Shown here: positions 4,551-12,955 of the stretch, piece by piece
How the letters are laid out: every line of letters begins with the position of its first letter
Position numbering within the stretch: the stretch's first letter is position 1
From: an uncultured virus (IMG/VR IMGVR_UViG_3300044622_000297)
Lineage: Duplodnaviria; Heunggongvirae; Uroviricota; Caudoviricetes
DNA length: 20,000 nt
Reading direction: 5' to 3' (one strand)
IMG/VR virus record: IMGVR_UViG_3300044622_000297
Made by a program: the position numbers and the translations under genes
The notes under the pieces: model-generated
Seen by the model: only the letters and a program-made list of their open reading frames with translations
The model's database searches: none
Told to the model about the DNA's origin: nothing

Positions 4551-5741
4551 TTACGGCCAGGTCGAAACTACGCTCAATGCAGTACGAGACCAAATGTCTG
4601 ATATTCCGTCGGTCCAGGTTGCAGTACAGTAATAAAGATAGGATGCATCTATTGCAACATCTCCGATTGTGTTGCCAGTTTGTCCTTTTGACGTAGTAGG
4701 TGCAGTTGCTACAAATCCGTCCCCTATCAGCCCAGAGTAACCAGAGACACCAGAGTAACCTGAGGTGCTCGAATAACCTGAATAGCCGCTTGTTCCTTCT
4801 ATACCACTAATTCCTGAGTACCCACTTGTTCCATCAATTCCTGAATAGCCGCTTGTTCCGTCTATACCACTAATTCCTGAATAGCCGCTTGTTCCTGAAT
4901 AACCAGAGATACCTGACGTACCGCTAGAGCCCGAGTACCCAGAAGTTCCGCTGACCCCCGAATACCCACTCTTTCCGCTTGTTCCTGACGCGCCACCTAA
5001 CCCTGAGTATCCAGAGATTCCGCTTGTTCCAGAGATACCCGAGTAACCGCTTCTGCCTGAGGTACCGCTCTCACCTGAGTAACCAGACGTACCACTTACT
5101 CCTGATTTCCCACTTGCGCCGCTAGACCCCGAATATCCAGAAGTTCCGCTTGTTCCAGAGATGCCTGAGTAACCGCTTCTGCCTGAGGTACCGCTCTCAC
5201 CGCTATAACCCGACCATCCGCTCTTTCCTGAGGTACCACTAATTCCTGAGTAACCTGAGGTACTTTGTCCCGAGATTCCCGAGTAACCAGAAGAACCACT
5301 TAGTCCAGATATGCCGCTGTACCCTGAGGTACCAGAATACCCGCTCTTACCAGACCATCCGCTAGTACCAGAAAGTCCTATCCCGCTATGTCCTGAATAA
5401 CCCGATACTCCTGAGTAGCCGCTTGCGCCGTCTATGCCCGAGTATCCGCTTGTACCGTCTATACCTGAATAACCACTAAGCCCGCCTGGTTGCCCGCTAA
5501 CTCCTGAGTATCCACTCGGGCCTGCTACGTTGCTTGAGAACCCAGAATAGCCACTTAGACCACCAGCTTGTCCGCTAACTCCCGAAAATCCGCTAGGGCC
5601 GACTGCGCCACTATATCCGCTAGTCCCGCCGGCGGTGTATAGTTCAGTGAAGTTTTGGTTGATTTTGTCGAACGACGCCCGTAATGGATCGCCGCTGCCA
5701 TCTGAAGGCACTGTGCCGATATTGATTGTTTGCTTTGCCAT
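4551..5741 (-). CDS. Virion fibre protein with collagen-like (Gly-X-Ser)n repeat
   Basis: N-terminal MAKQTINIGTVPSDGSGDPLRASFDKINQNFTELY (T4 gp9/gp10-type N-terminal motif), about 300 aa of SGYSG/SGTSG/SGISG repeats, C-terminal DASYLYYC...W-x-R module; SD TAAGGA. Confidence 0.8.
   Translation of the reverse strand: MAKQTINIGTVPSDGSGDPLRASFDKINQNFTELYTAGGTSGYSGAVGPSGFSGVSGQAGGLSGYSGFSSNVAGPSGYSGVSGQPGGLSGYSGIDGTSGYSGIDGASGYSGVSGYSGHSGIGLSGTSGWSGKSGYSGTSGYSGISGLSGSSGYSGISGQSTSGYSGISGTSGKSGWSGYSGESGTSGRSGYSGISGTSGTSGYSGSSGASGKSGVSGTSGYSGESGTSGRSGYSGISGTSGISGYSGLGGASGTSGKSGYSGVSGTSGYSGSSGTSGISGYSGTSGYSGISGIDGTSGYSGIDGTSGYSGISGIEGTSGYSGYSSTSGYSGVSGYSGLIGDGFVATAPTTSKGQTGNTIGDVAIDASYLYYCTATWTDGISDIWSRTALSVVSTWP
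4730..5630 (-). repeat. Degenerate 9-bp coding repeat (Gly-X-Ser), including an exact 35-bp duplication at 5041-5075 and 5167-5201
   Basis: gagtaaccgcttctgcctgaggtaccgctctcacc occurs twice; many shorter duplications. Confidence 0.85.
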
Positions 5742-5783
5742 TCCTTAGATCCTGTTATCATGTATTTATCGGATCTAAGGAAT
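5740..5783 (-). promoter_or_regulatory. RBS-occluding hairpin with late promoter GATAAATA (5763-5770) in its loop
   Basis: Perfect 13-bp inverted repeat attccttagatcc (5740-5752) / ggatctaaggaat (5771-5783) covering the SD and part of the start codon. Confidence 0.8.
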
Positions 5784-5796
5784 TTATAACTTGCTA

Positions 5797-6015
5797 CTAA
5801 TTACGGTATACGATTCTACCTTTAGTCAAGTCATAAGCTGACATCTCTACAGTGACGCGATCACCAAGCAAGATGTTGATAGTGTTAGTGCGCAGCTTAC
5901 CGCCTAAGTAAGCGATAATCTTGGTGTTCAAATCGTCTAGCTGAACACGGAATGTTGCGTTTGGCAACAATTCAGTGACTTCGCCCTCGAAACGGAGGGC
6001 CTCTTCCTTTGCTAT
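5797..6015 (-). CDS. infA: Translation initiation factor IF-1, 72 aa, ATA start codon
   Basis: Manual translation (M)[71 protein letters not shown] is full-length and colinear with bacterial IF-1. SD AGGAG at 6023-6027, 7 nt before ATA. Confidence 0.95.
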
Positions 6016-6048
6016 GATGTTTCTCCTTTTATTATAGTAGCAGTTTAT

Positions 6049-6359
6049 TTAGTGCTGGTTTGCGAGTATTGAAAAGACATGGTACTTTTCGTGTAGCTCG
6101 TCGTATTTCGTCTTCAGTTTAGATAATTCTTTAACTACGCTTGCATGAAATTCTGCGTCGGTCTTTCGAGGTCGTGGATTATTACGTCATTTGCATCAAA
6201 CCACTCGTCTGGGTCGTTGCGGTATTCAGACGGTATAAAGTGAACAAGCATTTCTGCGTAGTACGCTAGTCTTCTAACCCAAGGATCTTTGTGCTCTTCG
6301 CCCCAAGCAGAAAGCTCTTGAATTGATACGTGGTCAGGATGAGTAGGAAATGATTTCAT
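6049..6359 (-). pseudogene. Hypothetical protein, probably frameshifted near 6185 (otherwise a 74-aa ORF 6135-6359)
   Basis: The -1 frame is open from about 6186 to TAA at 6049 (RNNPRPRKTDAEFHASVVKELSKLKTKYDELHEKYHVFSILANQH) and fills the gap up to the infA leader. Confidence 0.45.
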
Positions 6360-6361
6360 TA

Positions 6362-6733
6362 TTACCGCCTCATTTTAGAAATAGCAACTGCTTCCTCGGA
6401 TGAGAACACCGGAACCGCATTGCTCTTGTGCATCTGTCCTATCCCCAGAATTTTATCGCCTGTATAGACAGGACTGTCCTTAGCAGCAGCAACACCGACC
6501 CCGTCGCCCTTGCTTGGGATCTTTGGCGCGTCTGCTCCGCGGTAAGTAGGTTTGAACGAAAGTGGCTTCAATTTGTTTTCCTTCTTAGCTTTGGGTTTAA
6601 CGTCGTACTTTGATAACAGATTTTCCCACCCTTCTTTCAGCTGGGCAGAAGTCCGCGCAGCATCAGCATTACGGAACTTCTTCTTACCTTTCTTTTTGCC
6701 GGTTGTGGTTAACCACGGGCCTTCCATGTGCAC
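6362..6733 (-). CDS. Basic conserved phage hypothetical protein
   Basis: Lys-rich 123-aa ORF with C-terminal YTGDKILGIGQMHKSNAVPVF...ISKMRR, a motif I recall from T4-like phage hypotheticals; tightly packed with its neighbours. Confidence 0.75.
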   Translation of the reverse strand: MHMEGPWLTTTGKKKGKKKFRNADAARTSAQLKEGWENLLSKYDVKPKAKKENKLKPLSFKPTYRGADAPKIPSKGDGVGVAAAKDSPVYTGDKILGIGQMHKSNAVPVFSSEEAVAISKMRR

Positions 6734-6735
6734 GG

Positions 6736-7149
6736 TTACTTTGCTTTCTTAGCCAGTTCAGCTTCCATCTCGGCAACACCGTTCTGTAATACTGCTGCCA
6801 TGTTTAAAGTTTGCTGTTTAGTAAGCAAAGTGTAAGATTCAACCTCGACGTACCCTTTAGTGATAGCAATCCAACAAATTTTAGCAGTAGTGACCCAACG
6901 GTTAGCAGTTTCTTTCAACCACATAACAAACCAGGACTCGTCGTAAGTAATCGGAAAAGTTTCGCGCCACCAGGCAGTTTTTACCTTAGCCGAGATGTGA
7001 CAGGTAATTATAGAATCGTCAGGCTCGTCAATCTCGATCATAATATCAACTTCAGCATCGCACCCACACTCACACGGGACGCGCCACCAACGCCAGTTCT
7101 TGTATTCCTTAAGTGCCATAATGCCTTCTGCCGGTTTTTGTGCTTCCAT
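6736..7149 (-). CDS. Hypothetical protein with C-x-C-x-C motif
   Basis: 137-aa ORF; TAATG coupling with the upstream gene; PCECGC. Confidence 0.7.
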   Translation of the reverse strand: MEAQKPAEGIMALKEYKNWRWWRVPCECGCDAEVDIMIEIDEPDDSIITCHISAKVKTAWWRETFPITYDESWFVMWLKETANRWVTTAKICWIAITKGYVEVESYTLLTKQQTLNMAAVLQNGVAEMEAELAKKAK

Positions 7150-9709: not shown

Positions 9710-9954
9710 TCTTTCACTCCGAAATGCTTACGCAATGCTTCAAGGTAGTTATCGGTGCCCATAACTTTATTACCGTTGTCAATGGCCGAATAAACGTTAG
9801 CGCATTCAATCACAATAAGCTCAGCGAACTGTTCGACCGCTGCGTCAAACTCGATAACGTCGTCGTCGTTAAGTTGATGACAGAACGCCCTGTACCGGTC
9901 ATACAGCTCGGCTAAGTCAGTTTTTACTGCTAGGTCAATCACTCGTTGGTTCAT
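9706..9954 (-). CDS. Small phage protein of the MNxRIxxLA...FAELIVxEC...HFGV family
   Basis: ATGA overlaps at both ends; paralogue at 11937-12164. Confidence 0.75.
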   Translation of the reverse strand: MNQRVIDLAVKTDLAELYDRYRAFCHQLNDDDVIEFDAAVEQFAELIVIECANVYSAIDNGNKVMGTDNYLEALRKHFGVKE

Positions 9955-10544
9955 TCTTCTACTCCTTGTTCAATCCAGTGACAGTTAAACAGCCAGCGCA
10001 CTTCATCAACCTTAGTCTGAGTCGAGCACGACTTTGCGATTGCACCCTTTACTAACTCGTAGGTGTTTTCCTTCTGATCAAACATCTTGTACAGGAAACG
10101 CTGATACTTTTCTTCCTGCTTCTGTACAAACTCAACCGCGTAGATCTTACGGTCAACATCGAGCTTTGCTTTTGCAGCAGCAATACGCAGATCAATTAAG
10201 GTCAGCGAAGTATCACGAACACCGTTCCAGAACTTGTTTTCAAATTCCTCAAAACGTGCCAAGTCCTTAGCGTCCAGGAAAGTACGCACGTCGTCGGCCT
10301 GCTCGTTAGCGATGATCTCGATCACGTTCTTTTCGCGGCCGATCATGTCCTTGGCCTTGTGCTTGATCATATAGTCTTCGCTTTTACACTTTACGCGATG
10401 GCCAGAATCCCATGCAACAACAAATCCCTCTTCGCCTATTAGGCCACGCACAAAGGAAATGAACTCCTGTGGATCTGCCACAGAGTTATGCGATTTAACT
10501 GTAGGAATGTTAAACTCGCGAATCTTATCTTGAAGTATTGTCAT
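9951..10544 (-). CDS. RNA ligase (T4 Rnl1/RnlA-like), C-terminal half
   Basis: Nucleotidyltransferase motif IV (EGFVV) and motif V (RVKCKS..Y...H) followed by a helical C-terminal domain; has its own promoter. Confidence 0.85.
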   Translation of the reverse strand: MTILQDKIREFNIPTVKSHNSVADPQEFISFVRGLIGEEGFVVAWDSGHRVKCKSEDYMIKHKAKDMIGREKNVIEIIANEQADDVRTFLDAKDLARFEEFENKFWNGVRDTSLTLIDLRIAAAKAKLDVDRKIYAVEFVQKQEEKYQRFLYKMFDQKENTYELVKGAIAKSCSTQTKVDEVRWLFNCHWIEQGVEE

Positions 10545-10553
10545 AGTGTTACT

Positions 10554-10582
10554 ATTATACTACCAAAAAGAATAAATGTCAA
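10554..10582 (-). promoter_or_regulatory. Perfect sigma70 promoter TTGACA-N17-TATAAT driving the ligase C-half
   Basis: TTGACA 10577-10582, TATAAT 10554-10559, ATG 9 nt downstream, no SD. Confidence 0.9.
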
Positions 10583-10596
10583 GAAATATTTTATAG

Positions 10597-10658
10597 GATA
10601 AATAATAGTGCGGGCCGCGATACTTGTAATATCCGCCCGCTCTAGACGAACCAGGAGG
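10597..10658 (+). promoter_or_regulatory. Late promoter GATAAATA, structured 5' leader and SD of the homing endonuclease
   Basis: GATAAATA 10597-10604; stem gcgggc (10610-10615)/gcccgc (10635-10640) with inner gata/tatc; AGGAGG 10653-10658. Confidence 0.65.
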
Positions 10659-10663
10659 CTCAT

Positions 10664-11401
10664 ATGTCCAGCAACGATATTTATCAGCTGTATTACACAT
10701 ACCAACTAATTGATCCACGATCAAACTTACCATTTTACATTGGCTTCGCAAAAGATCCGCTGCGACCATATGATCATTTAGCGCAGTGTAAGAATTGGTT
10801 AGCAGGTAAGAAAGTTCCTCATCCAAACTATATCAAAATGGCCAAAATAAGAGACATTCTTAGTGAGGGTTACGAGTTCAAATTTGAAATTATTTACAAA
10901 AGTTACGATCCAAATCAAGCATACGACAAAGAAACTGAGTTAATAACAAAGTATGGAAGACAAGACTTAAAGACAGGATTCTTATCTAATATGAATGCTG
11001 GAGGCCGCGGCTGTCTAAATCCAAGTGACGAAGTAAGAAAGAAAATAAGTGACGGAAACTGCGGCACATTAGTTGAACGATGGGGCAAGGAACGAGCAGA
11101 GAAACAACTGGCGTTTCTTCGCAAACAACCCAAAGAAGTGATGGCAGAGCGCGGAATGAGAGGCGCTAAACACATCATTGACAACGGTTGGTCCAAAGAA
11201 ACATTATCTAAAAGAAGTAAGTCAAGATTGCTAAACACGGTTAAACGCATCCAAAACCATTATCACCAGCCATACACCGAAGAGTTACGCATACAAGCAA
11301 GAAAAGACAAGGTTGCCTTTGTTGATAAGACAGCCTTGTCTAATTATGTCACAGAGGAAGATATTCGCCAGTTATCATATGACGGCAAGCCAACAGAGTA
11401 A
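10664..11401 (+). mobile_element. Free-standing GIY-YIG (LEM-3-like) homing endonuclease gene, antisense to its neighbours
   Basis: YYTYQLIDPRSNLPFYIG...R...H, catalytic-type E in AYDKETELI, LSNMNAGGRG, then NUMOD3-like SDEVRKKIS; SD AGGAGG; the only plus-strand gene in this long minus-strand block. Confidence 0.85.
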
Positions 11402-11936
11402 GCATGGGCTTATCGTAGTGAATCACAATCCGGTTATCAGGCGCTGTGTATTCAAATACCGGAGTGATTCCGTTTTCAATACACCAAGTCGAAAACGCCA
11501 GATACTCTGGATGAGCAGCAATAAACGGTTCCGCTTGAAGCGCAACATCAGTTAGTCCCATCTTCGTCCCAAAGCGAACCTTACCTTCAACCATAAATGG
11601 TGACAGAAAAGAACCGTCAAGCTTGGTATAAACAGTATGCGGCTCAGAGAAATCAACATTCGCTAACTGCGTTTCTTCTTTCTCCATCAAGTTGAAAAAT
11701 TTATGAAGAGGGCGACGAAGAATCTCACCAGTAGAAGAGCGGAAGATCATGCCGCGCAGTTCGCGCAGGATAGCGTGAGCTTCGTTTTCAACAGGAGGAA
11801 AGGTATCCGCCATCTGTACCACGTAGTTGATGACTGTGTAATCACCGTCCTTTACCGCGACAATGAACTCAGGCTTATCCGCAATCAGCGGCAATACCTG
11901 CGAAATGTTTGTGATCAACGGAAATTCATACTTCAT
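11349..11936 (-). CDS. RNA ligase (T4 Rnl1/RnlA-like), N-terminal half with the catalytic lysine
   Basis: ELRGMIF, RPLHKFFN, motif I TKLDGS, TPVFEYTAPDNRIV, LTLLACRHMITGEY; stops (TGA) before motif IV. Confidence 0.9.
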   Translation of the reverse strand: MKYEFPLITNISQVLPLIADKPEFIVAVKDGDYTVINYVVQMADTFPPVENEAHAILRELRGMIFRSSTGEILRRPLHKFFNLMEKEETQLANVDFSEPHTVYTKLDGSFLSPFMVEGKVRFGTKMGLTDVALQAEPFIAAHPEYLAFSTWCIENGITPVFEYTAPDNRIVIHYDKPMLTLLACRHMITGEYLPL

Positions 11937-12538: not shown

Positions 12539-12955
12539 TTAGCTCGCCTTACAGCCAAGTGCCTTCAATGCGTTGACGAATTCTCTGCGGTTAGCCTTGT
12601 TCATCACAGGAAGTTTCTCAACGTGTAACGAGGTCGCTCCGGTGACCCACCGGCAACGATCGCAGGCGTCTTTTGCGTCCTTCAGACCGTAGCCCGTGTA
12701 TTGACGCACAGTTTTAATCACTTCAACATACATTGGCACATTTGCGTCAATCAGTCGCACATCGCCGAGATGCGTCCCGGTCATCATAGTAAAGAAAACC
12801 GCGCCCTTGAAATCCTGACCGACAGTGGTGGCAATCGTGCCCCACATTTCCATGCCGGCTTCGGGCCCCCAGAGCTCAGTAATTGTCCGCATGAAGTCTG
12901 TTCCGGACACAATCAGATCTTCTTGCTGCTCAGATGTTAGTGTATTGTAGTCCAA
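12539..12955 (-). CDS. Protein containing a ribosomal protein bL12 (L7/L12) C-terminal-like domain, TTG start
   Basis: VEVIKTVRQYTGYGLKDAKDACD matches the bL12 CTD motif VIKAVRxxTGLGLKEAKDLVE; the N-terminal ~60 aa are unrelated; SD GGAG 7 nt upstream. Confidence 0.8.
   Translation of the reverse strand: MDYNTLTSEQQEDLIVSGTDFMRTITELWGPEAGMEMWGTIATTVGQDFKGAVFFTMMTGTHLGDVRLIDANVPMYVEVIKTVRQYTGYGLKDAKDACDRCRWVTGATSLHVEKLPVMNKANRREFVNALKALGCKAS

Follow-up and report, generated by a model that had tools for sequence, protein, structure and literature searches.

The window, i.e., the whole stretch of 20,000 nt that was analysed, spans bases 54912-74911 of an IMG/VR virus record that is 155,045 bp long and estimated to be 44% complete. 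Its minus strand carries a gene for translation initiation factor IF-1 (infA-like), followed downstream by a collagen-like fibre gene, and the features discussed here are collected in Table 1. The runs that hold the stretch are labelled freshwater metagenome or lake water and belong to 21 studies, with five runs flagged as possible source. In a run search, 23 of the 24 listed runs carried part of window 5400-6600, and half or more of the words sampled from this interval were recovered in 20 of the 24. The phage is placed among lake phages of the jumbo type, and its IF-1 gene lies within a conserved late or structural gene block. The upstream 123-aa gene of this block (phrog_27048, of unknown function; window 6362-7149, minus strand) is confirmed in at least 597 IMG/VR stretches. 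Similar DNA for positions 5500-6400 was not found in the GenBank phage collection, and an exact-pattern scan of IMG/VR in which the start codon was left open returned 0 matches and hence no near-identical sister record. No Rfam family reached its gathering score anywhere in the window, and no tRNA genes were found in the 155 kb of the record, itself estimated to be 44% complete.

Table 1. Features at and around the IF-1 gene, by position in the window.
Feature	Position	Strand	Basis or remark
Collagen-repeat (G-Y-S-G type) tail-fibre protein, 396 aa	4551-5741	minus	PF01391 120 bits, several tail-fibre PHROGs
13-bp perfect hairpin, IF-1 stop to collagen-like fibre gene	5740..5783	minus	-19.7 kcal/mol, z -5.2
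IF-1 (infA-like) coding sequence	5797..6015	minus	72 codons + TAG stop (5799-5797); profile matches, AlphaFold model
TTG codon 16, where ORF callers start	5968..5970	minus	ORF listing
6-bp GC-rich hairpin GCCCUC(N6)GAGGGC, from +16 of ATA	5983..6000	minus	inside IF-1 gene
ATA at Met1 position, presumed start codon	6013..6015	minus	aligns to ATG/GTG/TTG of relatives
In-frame ATC, alternative weak start, directly upstream of ATA	6016..6018	minus	4 nt from Shine-Dalgarno
Shine-Dalgarno AAGGAG	6023..6028	minus	7 nt (AAACATC) before ATA
In-frame TAA closing the frame upstream	6049..6051	minus	direct reading, translation
11-codon upstream frame	ATG 6080-6078, stop TAA 6047-6045	minus	frame other than that of IF-1
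RNA ligase, C-terminal part	9951-10544	minus	PF20819 31 bits; phrog_562 positions 208-363
245-aa ORF within the ~800-bp ligase gap	10664-11401	plus	weak GIY-YIG, 24.8 + 18.4 bits, below curated cut-offs
RNA ligase, N-terminal part	11349-11936	minus	PF09511 74 bits; phrog_562 positions 30-194 of 377
138-aa protein, L7/L12 C-terminal-like	12539-12955	minus	PF00542 28.1 bits vs 25.9, residues 76-100 only

Read from the ATA (6015-6013), the gene product comprises 72 residues and ends in GRIVYRN. It matches the NCBIfam equivalog infA (TIGR00008) with 96.1 bits (cut-off 61.15), covering positions 1-68 of the 69 in the model, and Pfam PF01176 with 78.3 bits against a cut-off of 30.2. Twelve distinct sequences of solved IF1 chains were matched, eleven of them with E-values from 1.6e-20 to 3.4e-17 and the chain of 2nch with 7.7e-14. 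The AlphaFold model (pLDDT 90.1), for which an alignment of 40 sequences was used, exhibits strands at residues 6-17, 21-26 and 32-37, a helix at 39-43 and strands at 53-59 and 65-71; this beta1-beta2-beta3-alpha-beta4-beta5 arrangement is that of a single S1-like OB barrel in the order of IF1. The model superimposes on E. coli IF1 from a 30S complex (9fco_I) with a TM score of 0.92 and an rmsd of 0.9 Å, and on 1hr0_W with a TM score of 0.91. The gene of the window is a genuine, full-length, phage-encoded IF-1. Phage IF-1 is already covered by the PHROGs family phrog_30201, which is labelled “unknown function.”

Following the in-frame TAA, the minus-strand frame reads ATA AAC TGC TAC TAT AAT AAA AGG AGA AAC ATC and then ATA GCA AAG GAA GAG. 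Between this TAA (6051-6049) and codon 16 of IF-1 no ATG, GTG or TTG occurs, and codon 58 is the sole ATG of the frame. ORF calling limited to ATG, GTG and TTG cuts the gene to a 57-aa ORF (5797..5970) beginning at codon 16, a start which, judged by the model, would delete most of strand beta1 (residues 6-17). A preliminary description made from the sequence had reported a full-length IF-1 with ATA at the Met1 position, 7 nt after a strong AGGAG, had noted codon 58 as the only in-frame ATG and had warned that standard callers would miss such a gene. Direct reading confirms the first two of these points, the first also with the profile matches, and the truncated ORF call bears out the third.

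The start lies in an open initiation region. In this genome, AGGAG-type sites usually lie 5-9 nt before the start, and a spacing of 7 nt is typical of the strong ones; in the minimum-energy fold of the region from -60 to +40, the Shine-Dalgarno sequence is unpaired and lies together with the ATA within an open loop, while the 101-nt start region folds no better than its shuffled versions (z -0.5). A short GC-rich hairpin begins at +16 within the gene. Hairpins of 4-5 bp, identified by eye, are possible at about the same codons in the related loci L002 and L003, in a shifted register, and the +16 hairpin may simply reflect the Leu-x-Phe-Glu-Gly codons. A promoter scan found no sigma-70-like promoter directly upstream of IF-1 on the minus strand, where TATAAT occurs at 6036-6031 without an acceptable -35 element.

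In order to be comparable with the IF-1 site, a near-cognate start had to be an ATA, ATT, ATC or CTG located in frame 4-10 nt after an AGGAG and opening at least 60 codons, without a canonical start either upstream or in the next 15 codons. A genome scan with this definition found no comparable start elsewhere in the 155-kb record; the IF-1 site is unique, and ATA starts are no habit of this phage. It is most unlikely that translation of IF-1 begins elsewhere, be it at the in-frame ATC or by a re-start after the 11-codon upstream frame. The ATC is near-cognate and follows the Shine-Dalgarno sequence after 4 nt, and the 11-codon frame ends 29 nt before the ATA. However, strong sites with a 4-nt spacing are uncommon in this genome (6 sites, as opposed to 15 at 7 nt), the 11-codon frame has no Shine-Dalgarno sequence of its own, and the N-termini of relatives (M-A-K-E-E) align with the ATA as codon 1.

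The ATA differs from ATG by a single base in a metagenome-assembled record, so a sequencing or assembly error has to be considered, and the preliminary description had accordingly advised a check at position 6013. Two DNA contigs cover the start: record 16 of X6 (5988-6800) matches the window with 0 differing letters and 0 gaps over 813 bases, and record 4 of X11 (5939-6800) does so over 862 bases. Their depths are low (3.4 and 4, respectively), but they derive from different samples and different studies, with run records of 2024 and 2020, and neither is flagged as possible source. With two independent assemblies matching the record, an error was rejected; its probability is practically negligible, and the base is real. 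No metatranscriptome contig lies over the ATA: those of X22 cover 5716-5866, 6099-6412 and 6501-6651, and those of X23 cover 6332-6709 and 6740-6800. X22 and X23 are two metatranscriptome runs of one study, and RNA libraries can hold DNA.

At the DNA level, 176 complete IF-1 genes including that of the window were examined, two more genes running off their loci. A non-canonical start was found in 0 of the 175 others, all of which begin with ATG, GTG or TTG. Start reading allowed a slack of 4 codons on each side, and none of these loci lacked a canonical start. Among 80 IMG/VR loci, 67 have ATG, GTG or TTG at the aligned position, 10 are offset by 1-2 codons with an ATG or GTG visible, and 3 have the position at the locus edge. 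The 80 metagenome loci among the matches listed, all with at most 65% identity to the IF-1 of the window, start with ATG (63), TTG (14) or GTG (2), and the one remaining is displaced by one codon and shows a GTG immediately before the aligned position. A further 17 IF-1 genes were found beside homologues of the upstream 123-aa gene. The preliminary description had proposed such a table of start codons, with conserved ATA, ATT, ATC or CTG expected if the start were regulatory; the table contains no such start besides that of the window itself.

Closer relatives than at any DNA locus were obtained with a large protein search. The protein P0001 is identical to the IF-1 of the window at 70 of 72 residues, differing by M at residue 1 and by D28N, and P0002, P0121 and P0122 are 90-93% identical. 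All four were called at full length (71-72 aa) and therefore start at ATG, GTG or TTG. Logan and ENA proteins print M for any start, whereas JGI proteins print the literal residue; the JGI members of the clade have L (P0004, P0005, and P0010) or V (P0013, P0018, P0021, and P0029) as first residue. In a collection of 15 billion proteins, neither the full nor the truncated product of the window has an exact match when the first residue is taken literally. It follows from the comparison of these relatives that the ATA originated on the branch that ends in this lineage and is private and recent.

As far as can be judged from sequence comparison, the gene behind this start is undamaged and carries no second lesion. 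The IF-1 of the window keeps the majority residue at all columns that are at least 90% conserved among 124 unique relatives. Its dN to L003 is 0.226, compared with 0.264 for L002, and its dN to L004 is 0.284, compared with 0.289 for L002. Synonymous sites are saturated with respect to every DNA relative (pS 0.76-0.97), which precludes a dN/dS ratio for the branch of the window. With a normal start in an allele that is almost identical, the mutation has not existed long enough for decay to show. On account of this recency, a gene that still works and one that was only just silenced cannot be told apart by conservation.

Two readings of a recent start-codon mutation were weighed. In the first, which is probably correct although the balance is only somewhat in its favour, the mutation created a low-expression allele that is still translated from the AUA by virtue of its strong Shine-Dalgarno sequence. 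In the second, the main rival, the mutation silenced an accessory gene and would be the first step of gene loss. Such a start-loss null allele is possible but rather unlikely. It would agree with an ATA that is private to one lineage while the relative with 70 of 72 identical residues has a canonical start, and the intact frame would then only reflect the recency of the change. It would also agree with the distribution of the gene: among the matches listed, 55 loci anchored on the upstream 123-aa gene have at least 3 kb of downstream sequence each, and IF-1 is present in 16 and absent from 39 of them. Where present, it stays between the block of the 123-aa gene and the fibre-like gene. From this distribution, IF-1 appears to be a patchy accessory gene of the 123-aa-gene module that is dispensable in the wider phage group. 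Against a null allele, the strong, unpaired AAGGAG is still there at ideal spacing, no second lesion has followed, and the ATA lineage occurs in many lake samples with run records from 2020 to 2025, so that the allele is at least not costly.

Published AUA starts bear on both readings. In E. coli reporters, AUA reached 1-2% of AUG in vivo (Hecht et al., bioRxiv 10.1101/063800), and an AUG-to-AUA mutant of T4 rIIB lost about 85% of its translation (cited in PMC5499595), two results that favour a null allele. Conversely, the published AUA starts with a good Shine-Dalgarno sequence all give measurable product. For the lysin of phage HB-3, a value of 7.5% of AUG is given (cited in PMC5499595). In a 2026 study of Staphylococcus aureus, the starts of infC and ccpN were mapped to AUA codons that follow extended Shine-Dalgarno sites, and AUA reporters gave about 10% of AUG, with up to 30% for ccpN in rich medium (PMC13009471). 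A case that agrees in both codon and family is an infA mRNA of E. coli whose initiation region had been optimised and whose start was changed to AUA. In vitro, this mRNA was translated at 0.95 of the AUG level in rich-medium extracts and at 0.56 in poor-medium extracts, and it was strongly inhibited by ppGpp (He et al., 2017; PMC5499595). It shares the gene family, the start codon and a good initiation region with the gene described here; however, it is a laboratory construct assayed in extracts, whereas the ATA of the window is a natural phage allele. The figures from E. coli and S. aureus may not transfer to the host of this phage.

Among natural systems, citZ of S. aureus offers a close parallel. 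Its AUA occurs in the NCTC 8325 lineage only, replaces the canonical start of relatives, follows a strong Shine-Dalgarno sequence and yields about 10% of AUG (PMC13009471). The IF-1 of the window likewise combines a private AUA with a Shine-Dalgarno sequence at working distance. In contrast, the AUA starts of ccpN and infC are conserved across species, which the ATA of the window is not. The extended Shine-Dalgarno sites of the S. aureus AUA genes (PMC13009471) likewise differ from the site in the window, a 6-nt AAGGAG in which none of the extended type was seen.

The preliminary description had gone further and suggested that the ATA acts as a feedback sensor of initiation fidelity. According to this proposal, the ATA evolved in the manner of the AUU of infC, and IF-1 would rise whenever the fidelity that depends on IF1 and IF3 drops. 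The idea is prompted by a non-canonical start on an initiation-factor gene, a trait shared with the autoregulated AUU or AUC start of E. coli infC (PMC5499595; bioRxiv 10.1101/063800). Furthermore, IF3, supported by IF1, discriminates against some non-AUG starts (PMC5499595), and infC of S. aureus itself starts at AUA (PMC13009471). Still, a sensor is very unlikely. It would require selection to keep the codon in place. In E. coli, the infC start is conserved and its own product discriminates against it (PMC5499595; bioRxiv 10.1101/063800), whereas conservation of this type is absent among the 175 relatives and the nearest alleles are canonical. A private mutation was the very case that the preliminary description had named as speaking against its proposal. 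Nor do the published assays of the AUA-infA mRNA support strong control by initiation factors: a 10-fold excess of IF3 had no effect in rich-medium extracts and lowered translation by only 20-25% in poor-medium extracts, and addition of all three initiation factors brought little change (PMC5499595). Since this mRNA barely responds to IF3 but strongly to ppGpp, AUA would be a poor sensor of IF1- and IF3-dependent fidelity. In addition, a search of the 155 kb of the record, an incomplete one with an estimated completeness of 44%, yielded no IF3_C domain. The ATA allele is probably not a purpose-built regulatory switch.

The preferred reading, that of a weakly but still translated allele, can be laid out in a few steps. 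The change to ATA is recent and belongs to the terminal branch alone; most simply, it would have taken one G-to-A step from ATG. The unpaired AAGGAG located 7 nt upstream would place the ribosome at the AUA, where the fMet-tRNA would pair with the codon and initiation would presumably occur. The output of IF-1 would then be reduced to a level likely to depend on host physiology. Should the start of P0001 be TTG or GTG, two changes in one codon would have been needed, and a neutral slip would explain the ATA less well.

The start codons of viral IF-1 genes provide a context for such weak initiation. The 71 unique viral genes comprise 40 with ATG, 17 with GTG and 14 with TTG. In the viral loci L002-L081 and L162-L241, GTG or TTG is used by 25 of the 34 unique IF-1 genes that have a Shine-Dalgarno-like site. 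By comparison, GTG or TTG opens 10 of 57 same-strand neighbour ORFs from the same loci, a difference with a Fisher p of 1.4e-7 when relatedness is ignored; these neighbours are ORFs of at least 100 aa with a Shine-Dalgarno-like site, obtained by crude ORF calling. After clustering at 80% identity, the Shine-Dalgarno-using clusters divide into 14 without any ATG and 6 with ATG throughout, the other clusters into 5 and 15, respectively. Weak initiation of IF-1 is evidently tolerated, since GTG and TTG are common among the viral IF-1 genes with a Shine-Dalgarno sequence, and these counts suggest that it is common in phage IF-1 and perhaps even favoured.

The residues which would contact the 30S subunit were considered as well, the preliminary description having pointed out that basic residues of host IF-1 are replaced in a segment reading LRTNTINI. 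The segment of the window that contains LRTNTINI aligns with GKMRKNYIRILTGD in E. coli IF1 (9fco_I). The replacement of the host motif is correct, but the motif is identical in L002, which has a canonical start. Close variants occur in L003 and L004. More generally, phage-like sequences share the motif (T/H/S)IN(I/V/L)LLGD, as opposed to RIRVLAGD in named alphaproteobacterial sequences. In Clostridioides difficile IF1, the basic residues in contact with the 30S subunit are K39, R41, R46, R64, and R66; K39 together with M42 contacts the 530 loop, and R41 and R46 contact the flipped-out A1492 and A1493 (PMC10913371). The IF-1 of the window retains the equivalents of four of these residues as K40 (K39), R42 (R41), K65 (R64), and R67 (R66), and has T43 at the position of M42 and N47 at that of R46 (codon 5875-5877, minus strand). 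N47 is common to phage relatives with canonical starts. Across 70 unique viral proteins, the R46 position is occupied by K (41), R (12), N (11), Q (5), and T (1), whereas 64 of 68 unique metagenome proteins, which are mostly cellular-looking, carry R there. LRTNTINI is thus a phage-clade signature that is under selection rather than in decay and has no connection with the start codon; as the preliminary description suggested, it may alter 30S binding.

The start-codon preference and the altered contact residue could be united in a reading in which weak initiation of IF-1 is itself selected. The ATA would then be the extreme of the trend and a throttle coupled to nutrition, and N47 would mark an altered grip on the A site. 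This reading is doubtful and of low probability, although it fits the strong sensitivity of the AUA-infA mRNA to ppGpp and to poor medium in vitro. If it were true, a factor that inhibits translation when in excess would be kept low, and more of it would be made in well-fed hosts. The preference for GTG and TTG and the mostly missing equivalent of Arg46 may in any case tell something about the dosage, in large phages, of a factor that sits in the ribosomal A site. The single ATA allele, being private and recent, says little biologically.

Phage IF-1 genes and AUA starts were each known before, and the window represents a verified natural case that combines both. IF1 has been described in huge phages along with IF3 and L7/L12 (Al-Shayeb et al., 2020; PMC7162821), and the gene of the window resembles those cases in that it belongs to a large phage and lies near a translation-related (L7/L12-like) gene. 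That study lists IF1 with the phage genes proposed to redirect host translation; here, the start codon is ATA. A narrow search of open-access text yielded no account of a non-canonical start in a phage IF-1 gene. For annotation, the case implies that a near-cognate start should be called where a complete profile match extends upstream of the first ATG, GTG or TTG and lies behind a Shine-Dalgarno sequence.

Downstream of IF-1, the 13-bp perfect hairpin folds better than any of 200 shuffled sequences (0 of 200 fold as well), and its 3' arm holds the AAGGA of the fibre gene together with the AU of its AUG. A 21-bp hairpin (z -6.2) is located at the same place in L003 (1738-1783), and a weaker fold (z -2.0) in L002; the position of the hairpin is thus conserved while its sequence is not. 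The structure may serve in processing, terminate transcription in the absence of a U-tract or lock translation. That the ribosome terminating on IF-1 opens the hairpin and so couples the fibre gene to IF-1 by translation was considered and rejected, the stem beginning 14 nt past the stop codon and hence beyond the expected reach. Residues 1-39 of the fibre protein match the baseplate-wedge family phrog_958, and in many related loci a conserved form of this segment follows immediately after IF-1.

Two further observations concern genes located upstream on the minus strand. A T4 Rnl1-like RNA ligase is apparently split in two (window 9951-11936), and the ORF that occupies the gap on the opposite strand makes the arrangement look like the insertion of a homing endonuclease; an intron at this site was not found by Rfam. 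Beyond the ligase, the short match of the 138-aa protein to the C-terminal domain of L7/L12 recalls huge phages, whose reported ribosomal proteins include L7/L12 (PMC7162821).
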